From the NCBI GenBank assembly GCA_963752595.1, contig CAVVYZ010000001.1, forward strand, positions 7,747 through 71,746: a stretch of DNA of 64,000 nt, given 5' to 3'. How positions within the stretch are numbered: the stretch's first letter is position 1; the number at the start of each line of letters is the position of its first letter. The notes beneath the pieces were generated by a model, which saw only the letters and a program-made list of their open reading frames with translations, made no database searches and was not told the origin of the DNA. Positions 2 to 46,834 of the stretch are shown piece after piece. Source of the DNA: an uncultured delta proteobacterium (GTDB lineage: Bacteria; Desulfobacterota; Desulfomonilia; UBA1062). Made by a program: the position numbers and the translations under genes.

Positions 2-907
2 ATAGCTCACCGTCCCGAGATAAACCGTGAAACTCTTGATGCGCTTGCAACTGCCATGAATTCAGATGCCATCCCGGAAGGGAGCGGTGTAATTGAAGTA
101 TCAGAAATAGCCAAAGGACACGAGCCCTGGGTGCTCCAATCATTTGATCAGTTGTCTGTCGTCAGGCGTTTGGAAATGGATTTTTCTGCCCTAGAAGATG
201 CCGGATGTAAAGTCGGAATAGGTGTTGCAACCGGTGCCGATAAAATTTTTATAGGTCCCTTTAAACAGTTGGATGTAGAACCGGATCGGAAGTTGCCGCT
301 TGTAACGACGAAAGATATTGAACGTGGAATTGTGGAATGGAAAGGGCTTGGCGTGATCAATCCGTTTTCAGATGACGGTTTTCTCGTTGATCTTACCCAC
401 TACCCGAAACTTGCAAGATATTTTGAAGAGCACGCCGAGATAATTCGCAAGCGGAATTGTGCCAAAGGAAACCCTAAATCCTGGTACCGGACTATAGATC
501 GGATTTATCCGGATCTCGCCCGGCGCACCAAGCTTCTTATCCCTGACATAAAAGGAGAAGACCACATCGTATACGAAGACGGCCATCTTTATCCGCACCA
601 CAATCTGTATTACATCGTATCGGATGAATGGGACTTAAAGGCTCTTCAAGCTGTTCTCCGGTCAGGAATTGCAAAGCTCTTCGTATCCATATACTCGACT
701 CAGATGCGGGGAGGATATCTCCGTTTTCAGGCTCAATACCTGCGAAGAATCCGCCTCCCCAGATGGAAAGATGTTCCCGTGCCTCTCCGTAAGGCTCTAG
801 AGGATGCTGCCAGGAGTGGAGACATAGATGCCTGCAACACGGCTGCGTTTGATCTGTATCGACTCACTACCAAGGAAAGAACTGCAATACAAAATAACGG
901 CAGATAG
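2..907 (+). CDS. Type II R-M DNA methyltransferase, C-terminal part (5' end lies outside the window)
   Basis: Frame 2 is open from nt 2, upstream of the ORF-track ATG at 56. It carries TaqI_C/Eco57I-like target-recognition signatures ([37 protein letters not shown]). The stop lies 8 nt before the XhoI-family nuclease gene. Confidence 0.65.
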
Positions 908-915
908 GACAACCG

Positions 916-1659
916 ATGAGCGTAAACTTAGCTGATTACCAGGCCAAGGCAAGGGAAGCTGCCAAGGCATTTTGGGGGAATCGCGAAGCAGCCAGGCAGA
1001 AGCAGATTGAAAGCGGCAAAGCTGACCAGGGAGAACGAGCAGGAGTCCCGGCCGGAAAAAATATGGATGGGTTCCCGGCGTTGATAAAAGATGTCATACT
1101 CTTAAATGGACTTGATCACGCAGAAATCTGTTTAAAACGCCGGGTGCTCACCCTCCCCGGATTCTTCAGGCCCACAAAACTCTGGGATATGCTCGTGATG
1201 AATGAAAAGAGGCTTATTGCGGCCATTGAGTTAAAGAGCCAGGTCGGGCCGTCATTTGGAAACAATCTCAACAACAGGACAGAGGAGGCTATCGGCACCG
1301 GCCTTGACTTCTGGAAAGCATACCGGGAAGGGGCTTTTGGTGATAATCCACGACCATTTGTCGGTTGGTTGATCCTTGTTGAAGATTGTGCAAAATCTCG
1401 TTCTCCAGTGCGTGATTTCTCTACACACTTTCCGGTGTTCAAAGAGTTTATCGGAGCCTCCTATGCCGAGAGATATAACATCCTGTGCAAAAAACTTGTT
1501 CAGGAGCAGTTGTATACGAGTGCATCAATTATCTTATCACCCCGTTCTGTAGTCAGCTCAGGGGATTATTCAGAGCTTTCAGAGATGACAAGCCTAAAGA
1601 CGTTTATCAGCACATTAGCTGGTCATGCAGCTGCTGAGGCATCACGGGTGTATGGTTGA
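916..1659 (+). CDS. XhoI/PaeR7I-family type II restriction endonuclease (247 aa)
   Basis: Size and the M-then-R operon order match what I recall of the PaeR7I system (endonuclease about 246 aa). The central [23 protein letters not shown] block looks like the XhoI family. Recognised by eye only. Confidence 0.6.
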
Positions 1660-28147: not shown

Positions 28148-29104
28148 TCACCCCAATTCTTTATCCTTGTCAGTCCTATGAATTCTATCATGACAAACAG
28201 TACAAAGCGTCTTGAGGTTCTCTTCAGTATTATCACCCTTCTGGACATGGGGTTTGATATGGTGCAATTCCAAATGGCGAGGATCAGATGGATTCCATTC
28301 TTCATGTGACCATCCGCAATTCTTACATCTATAACTATCACGCCTGAGGACTTCTCTTCTGACATCGTCAGGGATTTTACGATCATGTTCTGGGCTTTGT
28401 CGATCCGCTTGTAATACATAAGCGCCCACCGGTAAATCCGGGTTGCCTGTTGTCTTGGTCATAATAGGCCAACCGAATTCGGTACGAAGTTCACGGACTC
28501 TCCTGGCCCACTCGGTCTTATTACCGGCCACATAACGAAGTTCTTCACCGGTTACGGGAAGCCCGACATTCTCCCTTAAAAATCTTAGGATCTTATCACG
28601 CACCGATGCTTTTTCTTTGCGTATCCTATTGGCAATATTCCATCGGTGTGCAGCATCGCGGTCTTGCTGTTCGCTGAGGAGAATATATTCATCCGGTTTC
28701 ATCTTTTTCAGTTCTTCGGGAATCTCCTCTTCTTCTGCATCTTCCATTTCCTTGATCGTTACCCCTGTAGCTATCGACCAACCGAACTGAACTCTCAATT
28801 CTCTAATTCTTCTTGCATATTCCTGGATACCGGATACAACAAGAAGCTCATCTCCTTTAATGACTACTTCCGGATAGCTTCGGAAATACTGGAGGATACG
28901 ATCCCTGGCCGCAGATTGATACTTTTCCGGAATCAAGGATTTGCCGAGATTTCTCAGGCTTTTAAAAATCGGTATAAGGGCAAGGACCTTTGGCCGTAGT
29001 CCGCTCGATTGAAGCTCGGTTTTAAATTCCTTGATTAAAATCTCTACCTTTTGCCTTAGTTCTTCCGGATCAGTTGCTTTCGATGAGCCCTTAACTTTTG
29101 CCAT
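28148..29104 (-). CDS. HNH endonuclease with two tandem winged-helix-like repeats (candidate restriction subunit)
   Basis: The C-terminus carries an HNH/zinc motif (CKNCGW...LELHHIKP...NLKTLCTVCHDRIH). GGAGGGG lies 8 nt before the ATG at 29104, which overlaps the vsr stop by 14 nt. Internal repeats are at 28766-28912 and 28457-28609. Confidence 0.8.
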   Translation of the reverse strand: MAKVKGSSKATDPEELRQKVEILIKEFKTELQSSGLRPKVLALIPIFKSLRNLGKSLIPEKYQSAARDRILQYFRSYPEVVIKGDELLVVSGIQEYARRIRELRVQFGWSIATGVTIKEMEDAEEEEIPEELKKMKPDEYILLSEQQDRDAAHRWNIANRIRKEKASVRDKILRFLRENVGLPVTGEELRYVAGNKTEWARRVRELRTEFGWPIMTKTTGNPDLPVGAYVLQADRQSPEHDRKIPDDVRREVLRRDSYRCKNCGWSHEEWNPSDPRHLELHHIKPHVQKGDNTEENLKTLCTVCHDRIHRTDKDKELG

Positions 29105-29507
29105 GTAGAAACCCCTCCAGTTTACCGAGCAATTCATCAGGTTTTCTCGTTTCGCATTGCCAGATAACGAGAACCTTCCATCCTTGAGATATCAATTCCG
29201 ATTCAAAGCGCTTATCACGCTCAATATTCAGATCAAGCTTCCGGTTCCAGAACTCTACATTCGTTGTCGGCCTTTTAGATCGCGGACAGCCTTCATGACC
29301 ATGCCAGAAACAGCCATGAACGAAGATCACTTTTTTATGTCTCTGCAAAACGATATCCGGATTTCCGGGAAGGCGGCGTACATTGACCCTGAACCGATAA
29401 CCCATTTTATGTACTGATGACCTCACAAGGATCTCCGGCTTTGTATCGCGTCCTTTGACGCGCCCCATTATCCGGCTTCGTTTCTCCGGTGAAAAAACAT
29501 CGGTCAT
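29091..29507 (-). CDS. vsr: Very-short-patch repair endonuclease
   Basis: Canonical Vsr blocks are present: RSRIMGRVKGRDTKPE, GNPDIVL, IFVHGCFWHGHEGC, FWNRKLDLNIERD, VLVIWQCE. Confidence 0.9.
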   Translation of the reverse strand: MTDVFSPEKRSRIMGRVKGRDTKPEILVRSSVHKMGYRFRVNVRRLPGNPDIVLQRHKKVIFVHGCFWHGHEGCPRSKRPTTNVEFWNRKLDLNIERDKRFESELISQGWKVLVIWQCETRKPDELLGKLEGFLHGKS

Positions 29508-29508
29508 G

Positions 29509-30726
29509 TTATTTAGTGTTCATCGTAAGAAGCAGATAGACGACATCAGCCACACGGGCCGCTAAGAGAGGGGGAACAGCATTCCCTATTTGTTTGGCGA
29601 TCTCGATTTTCGATCCTTTGAAAGCAAAGTCGTCGGGGAATGATTGTAATCGCGCTGCTTCGCGATGCGTTATCGGGCGATGCTGTTTAGGATGAAGATA
29701 TCGCCCCTTCTCAGGTTTGAAGAATTCCGTCCGAATCGTGAATGCCGGTCTATCCCACCATAATCTTCCGAAGAGGTCGGTGCCTCCGCTTTTCTTCCGT
29801 ATCCAGCAGTCAGGTGTGAGGTCCGGTGCCATTCTCTGTAGGTCGAACCGGTTCATTCCCTCATCAGGTATGGATTTGTACCTTGCAATGCTCAACGGAG
29901 TCGGTGTCCTGCCGAAGTGAAGGTCCATAGGCGGATCGATATTTCGGATTTCAGTACCTTCCGGCTGAGGTAAATCAGCTATAGCATCCTGGACGGTTCG
30001 CCATTTTTCTGCATTCGGCAAGTACCCATCTCTTGAACCATCAATCAATGTTGATTGGACCACACCTTTTGACGGATCGAAATGTGACTTCCGTGGCGGG
30101 AAGACGAGAGCCGGGTTGAAATGCTTACAGCCGATAATAAATGCCCTTTTCCTTGCTTGAGGGACACCGTAGTCGGTAGCACAAAGTTTGTCGCTCCATA
30201 CATGAAAACCCATTTCTTTAGCCATGTGAATGATTTCGTCATGTTCAGAAGATCCCAGGATTTGCGGAACGTTTTCCATTACAAAGATTCCGGCTCCCGA
30301 CCGTTTGACGACTTCGAAAAACGGTCGCCAGAGTTCTTTTCTCGGATCGACCTCGCGATTTTTATTCAAAAGGCTAAAACCCTGACAAGGCGGCCCGCCG
30401 ATGACCACATCGGCTTCCGGAATTTCTATCTTCGGGTTTTTAAGTATGTCTACGACATCACCAGGAAGACAGTGATCACCAAAGTTTGCATTGTAAGTTT
30501 TGACACAATAGCCATTAAAATCATTGGCCCATACAGAATCGAAAGCATGACCGAACCTCTTGGAAAATCCCAGCGTCATGCCTCCGGCCCCGGCGAATAC
30601 ATCTATAAGTCGATATCTTTTAGGAGCTGTTATAATGCTTCCGCTGACTCTCGCATCATATACAAGCTGCTCTTCTCGTAACAACCATTCGGAATAAGAT
30701 ATTTCCTCTGCGATCTCATATTTCAT
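29509..30726 (-). CDS. DNA (cytosine-5)-methyltransferase
   Basis: m5C-methyltransferase motifs I (DVFAGAGG), IV (GGPPCQGFS), VI (ENV), VIII (QARKR) and X (GNAVPP) are present. The stop is 1 nt from the vsr start. Confidence 0.92.
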   Translation of the reverse strand: MKYEIAEEISYSEWLLREEQLVYDARVSGSIITAPKRYRLIDVFAGAGGMTLGFSKRFGHAFDSVWANDFNGYCVKTYNANFGDHCLPGDVVDILKNPKIEIPEADVVIGGPPCQGFSLLNKNREVDPRKELWRPFFEVVKRSGAGIFVMENVPQILGSSEHDEIIHMAKEMGFHVWSDKLCATDYGVPQARKRAFIIGCKHFNPALVFPPRKSHFDPSKGVVQSTLIDGSRDGYLPNAEKWRTVQDAIADLPQPEGTEIRNIDPPMDLHFGRTPTPLSIARYKSIPDEGMNRFDLQRMAPDLTPDCWIRKKSGGTDLFGRLWWDRPAFTIRTEFFKPEKGRYLHPKQHRPITHREAARLQSFPDDFAFKGSKIEIAKQIGNAVPPLLAARVADVVYLLLTMNTK

Positions 30727-43289: not shown

Positions 43290-44150
43290 TCATGAGAAAA
43301 GATCAAGCCACTCCGTTGTATGCTTCCAGAGCGTCTGCCGCATCTTTTCCTTGAAAAAGCCCAGGTGCCCTATCTTGCCGGCACCCAGCTCGGATGCCCT
43401 GATCCTGCGGCGCTCGATCCTCGCTTTGGGATACTGGGACAGAAGATGCTCGATGGCTGCTTCCGGGGCATAAGTGTCGTCATCAAAGCTATAGGCCAGG
43501 ATCGGGAACATAAGCTCGGCGTATAGCCTCGTGTCGATGCCGAACTTTTTCGTGAACAGATGGTCTTTCTGTCGTGCCCACTGTGCCCACTGCGAGATGA
43601 TGCCTGTGGGAACATTGACCGATGAAATGCCGAAGGCCCGCGCAGGGAAATTATCCCGCCCGAAAGACAATACCGGTACGATCACATGCATCAGAAGGAA
43701 GATGACGATACAGAAGGGCCACGGATACATGTGCCGGTTTGCAGTCGATGCAGGGGCGAAGACGACTCCGGACAGTCTTGAAGACAGGGGAGCCAGGCCG
43801 ATGAGCTGGCCGCCTGCGCTGTGGCCCACAAGAAAGATGCGCTGTGCGATCCCTTCTGCGATTACTGTACCCAGAACTGCCTCCAGGTCCTGTGCCCCCC
43901 AATCAATCATTCTCAGGTCGCGGCCGCGGATAACATCGGTCCGCGACTCTCCTATGCCCCGGTTGTCATAGGTGACGGCGGCATATCCCTGCTCTGTCAG
44001 GAAGCGTGCAAATGGTTCATAGAATTCCTTGAGGACTCCCAAGGCAGCGCTGATGACCACAATTCCTTTCGCTGTATCCTGAGGCAGGAAGAGATATCCG
44101 CTCAATGCGACGCCGTCCTTGCAAGTGACGGGTATCTTTCTTTTCTGCAT
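43290..44150 (-). CDS. Alpha/beta-fold hydrolase
   Basis: Intact 286 aa with nucleophile elbow GHSAGG. Confidence 0.8.
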   Translation of the reverse strand: MQKRKIPVTCKDGVALSGYLFLPQDTAKGIVVISAALGVLKEFYEPFARFLTEQGYAAVTYDNRGIGESRTDVIRGRDLRMIDWGAQDLEAVLGTVIAEGIAQRIFLVGHSAGGQLIGLAPLSSRLSGVVFAPASTANRHMYPWPFCIVIFLLMHVIVPVLSFGRDNFPARAFGISSVNVPTGIISQWAQWARQKDHLFTKKFGIDTRLYAELMFPILAYSFDDDTYAPEAAIEHLLSQYPKARIERRRIRASELGAGKIGHLGFFKEKMRQTLWKHTTEWLDLFS

Positions 44151-44261: not shown

Positions 44262-46526
44262 TCATGCCAGAGGTTCTTCCGGATCAAAAGAAGGACTTCC
44301 TTTTTTATGCCTCCCTCTCTTCGTCGATTGATTGCATCTTCCCAATGCTTGGTCATAATCGGCTGTCGCGTTCTTCCTGAAAAGATCCTGTATAACGGTT
44401 TCGCGGTTGGAATCGGTTATTCTGCTGTATCCGTTCTCGCATAAAATAAAATCGACTTGTGAAATCGGGATGATGTCTTCCCGGGGATTATATAAGAAAA
44501 TCCTCCTGATCATACTTTTATCCCTGATATCAGTTTCATCCTGGCATAGTGACTTCATCGCTTCCTTATCTTTGAGAAGCCAAACAGATTCACGCATGCT
44601 CACGATCTCATTTTTCAGGTATGTATATCCTTCGATACAGTAACGCTCTTTTCTGTTATTTTCAAAAATTGTGCTCACGGAATCGATTTTCCCCAGGTAA
44701 GGATGCTCCTGATGGCTTTCAGGCAGGTATTTCTCGCCTGAGCATACCAGCAGGATCAAAGGCTGGTTTAGATCATTCTCCTGCCTGGAACGGTATTCCC
44801 GGGCTAAGTTTATGATAGAGCTGTGCCCTGCAGAATGCCTGAAATACTGGTCGTTGATTCCGTTTGCTCCCACTATAACGAGGTGAATGGGCATACTTTC
44901 TATTACGTGACCTGCCACGATGTCGGGGATCAGAGCGATGTTGCAGAAATTCCTCCTCCGCAAATGTAGGCAGTATTGTGTCCCGTCATGGTAAATGAGA
45001 TGATCCCCGTAACTGCTTTGCGTTTTCGGCTGGCCTTCACATACGAAGATGTTGATCTTTTTTGAAATAATATACTCACGACGTGAGCCCCGGATCTCTT
45101 CAAACCTTTTGTCACGATAGGCATGCTCGATCAGTGCCTCCCGGAACCCGCACAATACCGTTGATACCATCTCACTATAACCGTACAGCAGCACGTTGAA
45201 CTCATTCTTTTTGTTATACAGACTCATCAGCTCATTCATAAAAATATTTCGGGAATTAACGCGGATCTTTTTGCGATGTGTATAGTGATCTCTATACAAT
45301 TCCAATATTACATTCAGGATCTCTTCTCTATCCGTTTCTTGTTTATCATCGATCCTTTCTTTAAGGATTCGTACAAGCTTATGCAGGCCAAGGTGGCAGG
45401 ACCGTTTTTTTAACGGGTTTTCGGTAAGGTAATTGAGGAATTCTTTCAGTTTCTTTTGGTAGCCGTCATATATCTGGAAATCATACAACTTTATAGTTCC
45501 ATCTGTATCCCTGTAGAGGGAATAACCAAGGATATTGGCTACCGAGATAAGAATCATTTCCAGCAGCTTGGAAGCACTCGGCGCCATCATGATATCATAA
45601 TTCAATACCATTTCTCTCAGGTCGATTTCCATTTGGTTGGTGACTTCAAAAGGAGACACCTTATGCTCGATATCCAGATAAAAAGTAATCCCCTCCTCTA
45701 TCAGAACATCAGCGATGCTGAAAAGCTCGCTCTTGAGATCATCGAGAACCATTCTGATAATCGATTGTAATTTGACACGCATGAATAACTTGATGTTTTC
45801 ATCAAGTTGAGAAACATCAAACCGGGGTTCCTTGAAGATAATCTGGATCTTGTGAGTGGTGAAATCCACATCGATGCTATGGATTATTCTGCTTTTTATC
45901 CAGTGAATTTTTGACTCGATCGGAATATCATAGGTGAGGCACATGGAATAGGGACCGTCGGGTACGCGTGAAGCACTGATATCAAGGGCATCCGCCAGTC
46001 TCAGATACGCCGACAGGAGCCTGAGCCTCACGCGGTCATTATTCACGGGTAGTTCTTTATCGCAGGTGTTAATGTCCTCTTGCTTCCTATGATAGCGGCA
46101 TAATTTGCCCAGGGCTTCTTTGTGGAATTGATCAACTCCAAGCTCTGCATATTTTTCCACGATGCATTTTTCGGATAATACATGGTGTTTGTTTCTTATC
46201 TCATTAGGTTTTCCTCTTGAGCCGGCAGGGAGATACGTTTCCACTAAGTCCGGAAGCATCCCGACATCATGGAGCCAGGCTGATGCCAGGAGAAAGAATC
46301 GCTCCTTCTCTGAGAGATCAAGATACTTTTTTTTGGGTATTAATTTATGGATAATATCTTCAACTGCCTGGAAATGGTCTACTCCGTGTGGGGTGAAGAA
46401 CGGCAGGTCTCTTTTATTATTATTGCAGAGCCAGGTAACTTTTTCGCGGATGTTAATTAATTTTTGTGAATAGCTTTCTCCAAGCCAACTTTTCCAGTGT
46501 TTTTCATCGGTGTTATCCATGTGCAC
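44262..46526 (-). CDS. HD-domain phosphohydrolase fused to an eIF-2B/MtnA-like (IF-2B family) domain; function unknown
   Basis: Intact 754-aa ORF with AGGAGG 5 nt before the ATG. HD motifs lie at aa 45-185 (HGVDH, WLHDVGM, NKHH, CRYHRK, LRLADALD). IF-2B-like motifs lie at aa 443-702 (NVLLYGYSEMVSTVL, IFVCEGQP, ALIPDIVAG, LVIVGANGI, HSAGHSSIINLAREY, PLILLVCSGEKY, YNPREDIIPISQVDFILCENG). Confidence 0.75.
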   Translation of the reverse strand: MHMDNTDEKHWKSWLGESYSQKLINIREKVTWLCNNNKRDLPFFTPHGVDHFQAVEDIIHKLIPKKKYLDLSEKERFFLLASAWLHDVGMLPDLVETYLPAGSRGKPNEIRNKHHVLSEKCIVEKYAELGVDQFHKEALGKLCRYHRKQEDINTCDKELPVNNDRVRLRLLSAYLRLADALDISASRVPDGPYSMCLTYDIPIESKIHWIKSRIIHSIDVDFTTHKIQIIFKEPRFDVSQLDENIKLFMRVKLQSIIRMVLDDLKSELFSIADVLIEEGITFYLDIEHKVSPFEVTNQMEIDLREMVLNYDIMMAPSASKLLEMILISVANILGYSLYRDTDGTIKLYDFQIYDGYQKKLKEFLNYLTENPLKKRSCHLGLHKLVRILKERIDDKQETDREEILNVILELYRDHYTHRKKIRVNSRNIFMNELMSLYNKKNEFNVLLYGYSEMVSTVLCGFREALIEHAYRDKRFEEIRGSRREYIISKKINIFVCEGQPKTQSSYGDHLIYHDGTQYCLHLRRRNFCNIALIPDIVAGHVIESMPIHLVIVGANGINDQYFRHSAGHSSIINLAREYRSRQENDLNQPLILLVCSGEKYLPESHQEHPYLGKIDSVSTIFENNRKERYCIEGYTYLKNEIVSMRESVWLLKDKEAMKSLCQDETDIRDKSMIRRIFLYNPREDIIPISQVDFILCENGYSRITDSNRETVIQDLFRKNATADYDQALGRCNQSTKRGRHKKGSPSFDPEEPLA

Positions 46527-46834
46527 CTCCTGTCATGGCTATTTCCAAACAAGCGACAAGTGTAACGGTAGCGTACGTTTTATTGGGCTAGAAAAACACA
46601 AGGCTGCTTCTGGCACGTTGCCGGCCGGAATATCGAGGTGAAATTAAAAAATACACGATAAGAGGATAAATTGATAGTTAATTTTTGCCAATAAACCCTA
46701 AAGATGAAAAAGGCACCCAAGGTATATCGATATACTCTGAAACCCGTCCAGTACCAGCGAAGCTGTTGCCTGGAAAAATTGTCTTGCTTCTCCCGGATGG
46801 ATCATTAATCTTAACCAAGAAAGGAATATCCTTT

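Follow-up and report, generated by a model that had tools for sequence, protein, structure and literature searches.

An HD-CE phosphohydrolase domain fused to an IF-2B-like module: a candidate stand-alone defence protein of an uncultured delta proteobacterium

Background

We will discuss one gene found in a stretch of 64,000 nt from an uncultured delta proteobacterium (GenBank assembly GCA_963752595.1, contig CAVVYZ010000001.1, positions 7,747 to 71,746 of the forward strand). This whole stretch will be called the window. An initial annotation, made from the letters alone, had pointed out an isolated gene of low G+C content at 44262..46526 of the minus strand. Its product would join an HD phosphohydrolase domain to a domain of the IF-2B family, which comprises eIF2B alpha/beta/delta, the methylthioribose-1-phosphate (MTR-1-P) isomerase MtnA and ribose-1,5-bisphosphate (R15P) isomerase. 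The question that this locus raises is what such a protein may do in the cell, and whether it belongs to the metabolism of its host or has a different origin.

The HD half is a member of a named family, HD-CE; the IF-2B half represents a branch without catalysis within a fold that is well known. As for its function, we see about an even chance that the HD-CE/IF-2B protein is a stand-alone, ligand-gated defence protein of the anti-phage or abortive-infection type, which degrades nucleotides.

Results

The HD-CE domain

Residues 41-236 match the Pfam family HD-CE (PF24391) with E 3.7e-35 and 122.3 bits, against a cut-off of 27; all residue numbers follow the 754-residue translation which starts at GTG 46526. 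The match covers model positions 1-238 of 263 and includes the region 45972-46394, where a full HD signature had been recognised in the initial annotation. The generic Pfam HD model stays below threshold on this protein. In an alignment of 62 full-length relatives the metal ligands H47, H51, H86-D87, H114, H146 and D179 are all invariant: the signature is complete, and therefore the HD metal site is intact. R111, R176 and R187 are likewise invariant.

The AlphaFold model of aa 1-300 has a predicted local distance difference test (pLDDT) value of 88.7, and Foldseek finds no close solved relative for it. The best match is E. coli GppA, with E 1.6e-3. Cyclic-nucleotide phosphodiesterases (class-I PDEs) from trypanosomatids and humans and an HD-GYP domain follow, all as weak matches; a profile search of the PDB also gives weak matches, to domain III of Ppx/GppA and to a PDE-like H-x3-H...HD segment. 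Neither Cas3-type HD nucleases nor SAMHD1 are among the 50 fold matches listed for this part. Judging from these weak matches, we would tentatively place HD-CE with the nucleotide phosphohydrolases or phosphodiesterases, and not with nucleases of the Cas3 type or dNTPases of the SAMHD1 type.

In the defence models of PADLOC the protein has a single match, RT_UG24 (E 1.7e-7), in which aa 108-259 are aligned to positions 798-941 of a model of 1036. It corresponds to a shared HD-like segment, is weak and partial, and lies outside the reverse transcriptase (RT). This suggests that the UG24 defence RTs carry an HD-CE-like domain in their C-terminal segment.

We take the HD-CE family to have been named by Nicastro, Burroughs, Iyer & Aravind in 2023 (NAR 51:11479). 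In the naming of the Aravind laboratory 'CE' means 'conflict effector', as stated in a preprint of 2026 which deals with the sister family, Calcineurin-CE, and cites Nicastro et al. 2023 (PMC12871103). Our protein shares with the family the model and all metal ligands over its N-terminal ~200 residues and, as is the case for other CE domains, its relatives have variable partners. The initial annotation could assign the architecture to no characterised family. This has to be corrected for the HD part, which has a name; it holds as far as experiments are concerned, since a literature search found no experimentally characterised member of HD-CE.

The IF-2B-like domain

The IF-2B fold spans aa ~296-730, with a helical N-terminal subdomain followed by a Rossmann-like subdomain. 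The Pfam model IF-2B (PF01008) reaches 33.8 bits against a cut-off of 22.4. In our protein this match is only partial, extending over aa 356-557 and positions 31-185 of the 280 of the model; in archaeal relatives the whole model is matched. With the AlphaFold model of the complete protein (pLDDT 85.5, predicted template modelling score 0.85), Foldseek gives about 100 matches at E <=1e-3, and the best 50 are all structures of the IF-2B family. On top we find eIF2B alpha/beta/delta, the R15P isomerases of Thermococcus and Pyrococcus and MtnA, with E ~1e-9 over ~420 aligned columns. The template modelling scores, normalised to the target, are 0.54-0.72, the highest one corresponding to P. horikoshii R15P isomerase.

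Profiles and fold searches are needed in order to see this relationship: phmmer with the whole protein as a single sequence has no match in the PDB. A C-terminal profile of 13 diverse relatives finds in the PDB MtnA (1t9k, E 4.6e-9; 2yrf, 5e-7), eIF2B-delta (E 2e-5) and R15P isomerase (E 6e-5). Comparison with the annotated MtnA of Bacillus velezensis by hhalign gives a probability of 96.4% and E 1.2e-9. The order of motifs is also kept: LLYGYS corresponds to LVYGCS in eIF2B-delta, CEGQPK to CETRP in MtnA, GANG to GADR and NPRED to NPAFD. Thus Pfam, Foldseek, profile search and hhalign agree with the block order that had been read in the C-terminus. The models of specific isomerases are not reached: the NCBIfam MtnA subfamily TIGR00524 has 27.6 bits against a cut-off of 185.85, and the equivalog models for MtnA and R15P isomerase have 12-13 bits against cut-offs of 271-528.

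Loss of the isomerase residues

The GAD motif of the isomerases had been noted to read GAN in this protein, and this is fully borne out by alignment: N555 falls on Asp204 of P. horikoshii R15P isomerase and on the Asp of the MtnA motif, which we take to be D240 in B. subtilis MtnA. We fetched 111 relatives having the three family marker motifs, and 97 of them could be scored with a regular expression; 95 have GAN and two have GAD. In one archaeal relative the best sequence match in the PDB is precisely the D204N mutant of R15P isomerase. According to the PDB titles, the mutants C135S and D204N of this enzyme are those solved with substrate. The change from Asp to Asn is a conservative one, and in the D204N complexes the substrate is still bound.

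A second difference may lie in the loop of the catalytic Cys, which is C135 in P. horikoshii R15P isomerase. In the secondary structure of the AlphaFold model the segment aa 443-451 (FNVLLYGYS) comprises the last part of the first Rossmann strand and the loop that follows. It has an invariant G-Y-S and no Cys in any member of the family; the hhalign alignment with MtnA has a 10-residue gap here, so that the register is uncertain. There is a near-invariant C459, which lies inside a helix, 8-10 residues downstream of the loop. A third change is found in the canonical KIGT segment, which is replaced by HSAGH. From these residues the IF-2B module appears to have a catalytically dead isomerase site.

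The pocket itself is well kept. S451, E497, K501, D514 and D535 are invariant or nearly so in bacteria and archaea, and so are G553-A-N-G, H564, G567-H568, R645 and N680-P681. The fact that distant members keep these residues argues that a binding site, beyond a mere scaffold, is under selection. HSAGH, together with K501 and R645, would form a basic, His-rich pocket which may suit a phosphorylated ligand.

The protein thus shares fold and motif order with R15P isomerase and MtnA, and differs from them by Asn in place of Asp, a loop with no Cys, HSAGH in place of KIGT, two insertions and the absence of a salvage-pathway operon. It is like eIF2B alpha/beta/delta in having an IF-2B fold without isomerase chemistry, and its LLYGYSELV loop aligns with LVYGCSSLV of human eIF2B-delta. 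eIF2B-alpha binds sugar phosphates, as stated in the titles of PDB entries 7kmf and 7kma, and by analogy it may be taken as a precedent for an inactivated IF-2B pocket which senses them. Unlike the eIF2B subunits, the HD-CE/IF-2B protein is prokaryotic, is fused to an enzyme and stands outside any translation-factor complex; identity is 11-15%. The regulatory subunits are an analogy here, and we do not claim membership.

The gene and its surroundings

The open reading frame (ORF) 44262..46526 of the minus strand has 754 codons and is uninterrupted, with zero internal stops, as described in the initial annotation. The canonical Shine-Dalgarno sequence is also present; the product of 754 aa has to be revised. 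On the minus strand the order is AGGAGG (46531-46526), TGCAC and ATG (46520). Since the GTG at 46526, listed as start by a mechanical ORF caller, overlaps the Shine-Dalgarno sequence, and a gene caller picks the equivalent ATG on a 98.5%-identical metagenomic contig, the true start is probably ATG 46520 and the product has 752 aa.

The gene is indeed isolated: it stands alone on the minus strand, with an unrelated alpha/beta-hydrolase gene (43290-44150) downstream and two divergently transcribed acetyl-CoA hydrolase/transferase genes upstream. No convincing promoter or terminator signals were found at its borders. For the first of the two upstream genes the mechanical start is TTG 46685 (+). 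The region 46685-46834 is likely to be outside the product, and a related contig and the Pfam match both put the start at ATG 46835 (447 aa). The divergent intergenic region is then 314 bp long and AT-rich.

To look for an empty site, we also used the CoA-transferase next to the gene as a query against metagenomes. The 79 loci found have at most 82% identity, and neither the flanking hydrolase nor the HD-CE gene is present in any of them; therefore an insertion boundary could not be defined.

Base composition

With 43.1% G+C the HD-CE/IF-2B gene has the lowest value among the 49 window ORFs which encode 150 aa or more (mean 54.9%, standard deviation 5.0). At third codon positions its G+C content is 50% versus 65%. 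The low value of the gene had been correctly seen from hand counts, which overestimated the carboxylase operon used for comparison: its region has 63-64% G+C in 1-kb windows, not 70-73%. The gene is foreign in composition and was horizontally acquired.

Six other ORFs of the window are below 50% G+C. Four of them are restriction-modification genes, which form two pairs: a methyltransferase specificity fragment with an XhoI-family endonuclease, and an HNH endonuclease with a Dcm methyltransferase (Table 1). The remaining two contain a Big_5 and a Cache domain, respectively. In this genome low G+C is largely a mark of acquired defence genes.

Table 1. Position of the HD-CE/IF-2B gene, its domains and motifs, and the low-G+C restriction-modification genes of the window
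Feature	Position	Strand	Remarks
Coding sequence, HD-CE/IF-2B-like fusion	44262..46520	-	752 aa from ATG 46520 (probable start)
Shine-Dalgarno AGGAGG	46526..46531	-	5 nt upstream of ATG 46520
HD-CE phosphohydrolase domain	45819..46406	-	aa 41-236; Pfam PF24391
HD dyad H86 D87, motif AWLHDVGM	46266..46271	-	from the alignment of relatives
Linker module	45642..45818	-	aa 237-295; long helix and strand packing on the HD-CE extension; no database match
Helical N-terminal subdomain of the IF-2B fold	45207..45641	-	aa 296-440; invariant P316, H378
Rossmann-like subdomain of the IF-2B fold	44337..45206	-	aa 441-730; two insertions relative to compact archaeal relatives
LLYGYS loop	45174..45191	-	aa 446-451; position of the catalytic-Cys loop of MtnA/R15P isomerase
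CEGQPK motif	45024..45041	-	aa 496-501; counterpart of MtnA CETRP; K501 invariant
GAN	44862..44870	-	aa 553-555; in the position of isomerase GAD; catalytic Asp replaced by Asn
NPRED motif	44475..44489	-	aa 680-684; counterpart of NPAFD in MtnA and R15P isomerase
TaqI_C-type methyltransferase specificity fragment	56-907	+	runs in from the window edge; pair with next row 47-48% G+C
XhoI-family restriction endonuclease	916-1659	+	PF04555, E 2e-91; partner of the TaqI_C-type fragment
HNH endonuclease with winged-helix domain	28148-29137	-	pair with next row (28148-30726) 45-47% G+C
C-5 cytosine DNA methyltransferase (Dcm)	29509-30726	-	PF00145, E 9e-58; partner of the HNH endonuclease

Distribution of the family

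The family is real but rare. An exhaustive hidden Markov model search of 1.84 billion representatives of 50%-identity clusters gives 390 clusters at E <=1e-30; with a limit of E <=1e-10 their number is 2106. In species-representative genomes the closest full-length members are found in Syntrophaceae, with 62% identity. Others are found in SAR324, Acidobacteriota, Thermodesulfobacteriota, Caldisericaceae and, within Bacillota, in Desulfosporosinus and Formimonas; further ones in Aminicenantia, Syntrophorhabdus, Bacteroidales, Planctomycetota, Methanothrix, Methanosarcinales and other Euryarchaeota. Such a scattered distribution across bacterial and archaeal phyla is typical of horizontal transfer.

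In the relatives the HD-CE domain is joined to IF-2B, TPR, trypsin or metallophosphoesterase domains, or to C-termini without a known domain. One metagenomic relative, P0036 (1083 aa), has in this order a calcineurin-like metallophosphoesterase, HD-CE and a full IF-2B domain: two different phosphoesterases on one IF-2B module.

Genomic context of the relatives

The loci of the relatives that we have compared have no conserved neighbour, and no conserved housekeeping synteny was found in them. In some loci there are defence genes within 5 kb. The locus of the closest homologue continues with WYL, HIRAN, ORF6N, DUF1016 and type-I Cas genes. Another relative is found with a DNA methyltransferase and HigBA, and in Solibacteraceae a Ppl gene (E 8.5e-119) and a SIR2/pAgo-associated-like gene lie directly downstream. 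Several homologues have 480-650 bp behind the gene in which no gene is called, and two homologues have 740-1000 bp of this kind in front.

The clearest case is found in two metagenome-assembled genomes of Methanothrix. They have a variable slot between AFOR/FBPase and RuBisCO/V-ATPase. The flanking RuBisCO and AFOR proteins are 98% identical, and the family members which reside in the slot are only 31% identical and have opposite orientations. Family members have been exchanged here as a variable cassette between near-identical strains. One of them is a 905-aa fusion of Trypsin_2, HD-CE and IF-2B, with a Trypco1 (Pepco) gene upstream. Trypco1 was introduced as a domain which co-occurs with trypsin in conflict systems (PMC7159879), and Pepco, which is the same domain, has been reported as a proteolysis-activated death effector (PMC12642450). 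In the other slot, which lacks the trypsin fusion, an unannotated 410-aa gene adjoins the family member.

We have considered the neighbouring RuBisCO as a metabolic link to pentose bisphosphates, and we have rejected it. It is found in one archaeal lineage and with inverted orientation, and 31%-identical inverted inserts between 98%-identical flanks point to a strain-variable hotspot, not to an operon.

Two copies of the gene appear to be degraded. In the complete chromosome of Candidatus Formimonas warabiya DCMF (NZ_CP017634.1) the homologue, with 46% identity, is split into ORFs of 346 and 313 aa with a gap of 158 nt: either it is a pseudogene, or the protein is naturally made from two genes here. 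The sister contig contig_40966 (ENA ERZ25039596) is 98.5% identical to the region 36-56 kb of the window. In its copy of the gene, which is called as two ORFs of 615 and 76 aa, there are six gap openings, and all of them lie in the 3' third; for five flanking genes the number is 0-1 each. This corresponds either to early pseudogenisation or to homopolymer errors, as the contig may be a long-read assembly. The split Formimonas copy and the gapped copy of the sister contig fit a dispensable, costly gene.

Discussion

A proposed function

In the mechanism that we propose, the IF-2B module, having lost the isomerase residues, would act as a receptor, the ligand being a phosphorylated ribose or a small molecule derived from nucleotides. 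It would probably also be the oligomerisation core, as it is in all solved IF-2B proteins. On binding of the ligand the N-terminal HD-CE domain, a predicted metal-dependent phosphohydrolase, would be either released from control or placed under it. HD-CE would then hydrolyse free nucleotides: nucleoside or deoxynucleoside triphosphates (NTP/dNTP), NAD-type or signalling nucleotides. Their hydrolysis would arrest phage replication or host growth. The initial annotation had compared the layout of a sensor plus an HD effector in one polypeptide with single-gene defence or signalling proteins. This layout fits well the HD-CE identity and the variable, sometimes defence-rich contexts of the family; defence and ligand binding stay conditional.

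The closest characterised logic is, by analogy, that of PUA-Calcineurin-CE-HAD. In this system m6-dAMP released in infection switches on a dNTP sink, and experiments have proven Calcineurin-CE to be a defence effector which is gated by a ligand and depletes dNTPs (PMC12871103). In both cases a small-molecule sensor is fused to a CE phosphoesterase, and it is nucleotide depletion that we propose here. The sensor is IF-2B instead of PUA, the effector is HD instead of calcineurin-like, and PUA-Calcineurin-CE-HAD needs a partner HAD gene, whereas our family has no conserved partner. A second parallel is CloA of Clover, an allosterically regulated HD-fold dGTPase which is a nucleotide-depleting antiviral effector (PMC12265719). 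With CloA and with the bacterial dGTPase/SAMHD1-like enzymes our protein shares the HD fold; allosteric nucleotide depletion is a property of theirs. It differs from the dGTPase/SAMHD1 clade in that the HD-CE part has no significant sequence or fold match to it and the regulatory domain is unrelated.

Several observations weigh against a role in defence. This window and most relatives have metabolic or transport neighbours and no defence island, and the defence genes found near some relatives are raw occurrences, to be read without a background rate. PADLOC-DB v2.0.0 has no system-defining model for the protein; the check for a catalogued defence system, proposed in the initial annotation, gave nothing beyond the partial RT_UG24 match. 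No relatives and no mobile vehicle were found by tblastn against plasmids and phages or in a scan of IMG/VR, and a fold search in BFVD gave nothing significant. At the borders of the gene there is no tRNA, no integrase and no flanking repeat, direct or inverted. For the HD part the matches to solved structures are weak, and its substrate class is therefore a guess. Finally, for all members of the family, ligand sensing, the nature of the ligand, the HD-CE substrate and the defence phenotype are what we infer.

A more specific form of the defence reading, which we put forward tentatively, is that the dead IF-2B module is an immune receptor for a 'danger' metabolite, a ribose phosphate or nucleotide-breakdown product, and gates the HD-CE effector within one polypeptide. 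Ligands of this kind may be R15P, phosphoribosyl pyrophosphate (PRPP) or an ADP-ribose derivative.

Other explanations

The protein might instead be a housekeeping or stress regulator, which we consider unlikely: a sugar-phosphate-sensing phosphohydrolase of an alarmone or polyphosphate-type substrate ((p)ppGpp, cyclic nucleotides), by which anaerobes would adjust their growth to carbon or nucleotide status. The weak matches of the HD part to Ppx/GppA domain III, GppA, PDEs and HD-GYP would agree with such a role, and so would the metabolic neighbours in the window and in most loci, the concentration of the family in syntrophic and anaerobic lineages, and the precedent of metabolic sensing that eIF2B-alpha provides for the fold. 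However, a core regulator is expected to be vertically inherited and syntenic. Here the distribution is patchy, the composition foreign and synteny absent; a 31%-identical allele has been swapped between 98%-identical Methanothrix strains, some relatives are fused to a trypsin/Pepco death-effector module and there are apparently pseudogenised copies.

We find it rather improbable that the IF-2B module senses no small molecule and is an oligomerisation scaffold, or a platform for proteins or nucleic acids, which keeps HD-CE inactive until a phage protein or a change in assembly state triggers it. Every IF-2B protein with a solved structure is an obligate oligomer (a dimer for MtnA, a hexamer for R15P isomerase, a decamer for eIF2B), and the eIF2B regulatory subunits bind proteins: phospho-eIF2alpha and viral NSs (7f67, 7rlo). 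The replacement of the KIGT-type ligand motif by HSAGH and the two large insertions of the bacterial clade point in the same direction. Yet the pocket motifs are invariant or nearly so in very distant members, which is unexpected for a pure scaffold, and the conservative Asp-to-Asn change would preserve substrate binding, as it does in the D204N complexes of R15P isomerase.

A bifunctional enzyme of nucleoside or methionine salvage, with an active R15P or MTR-1-P isomerase and a nucleotidase, tied to archaeal type III RuBisCO, is very improbable: a RuBisCO large subunit adjoins a family member in two Methanothrix loci, the automatic JGI/NCBI names of some members are 'methylthioribose-1-phosphate isomerase' and two relatives do have GAD, but the catalytic Asp is Asn in 95 of the 97, the catalytic-Cys loop has no Cys, the MtnA subfamily model stays far below its cut-off (27.6 bits against 185.85), and mtnK, AMP phosphorylase and RuBisCO were not found near the bacterial members examined.

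Conclusions

The group which named HD-CE routinely catalogues domain architectures. The fusion with IF-2B may be already listed in Nicastro et al. 2023, a paper outside the scope of our literature search, which found no paper describing it.

Nucleotide depletion gated by a danger signal is an emerging theme of bacterial immunity, as seen in PUA-Cal-HAD and Clover. To our knowledge, neither trigger nor substrate is known for most predicted CE effectors. The HD-CE/IF-2B family is a compact test case in a single protein, with a candidate sensor derived from an enzyme of known chemistry, its pocket preserved and its catalysis apparently off. With a substrate pocket preserved in this way, it is among ribose-phosphate-like metabolites that the trigger should be sought.

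If the protein were a metabolic regulator instead, the family would still provide the HD phosphohydrolases of syntrophic anaerobes and methanogens with an input domain of a new kind. If the more specific reading as an immune receptor for a danger metabolite is true, it would be the first sensor with an IF-2B fold in prokaryotic immunity, and a prokaryotic parallel to the sensing of metabolites and stress by non-catalytic eIF2B subunits in the antiviral integrated stress response of eukaryotes. The eIF2B-type fold would then have been recruited for regulation, not for catalysis, in prokaryotes as well as in eukaryotes.

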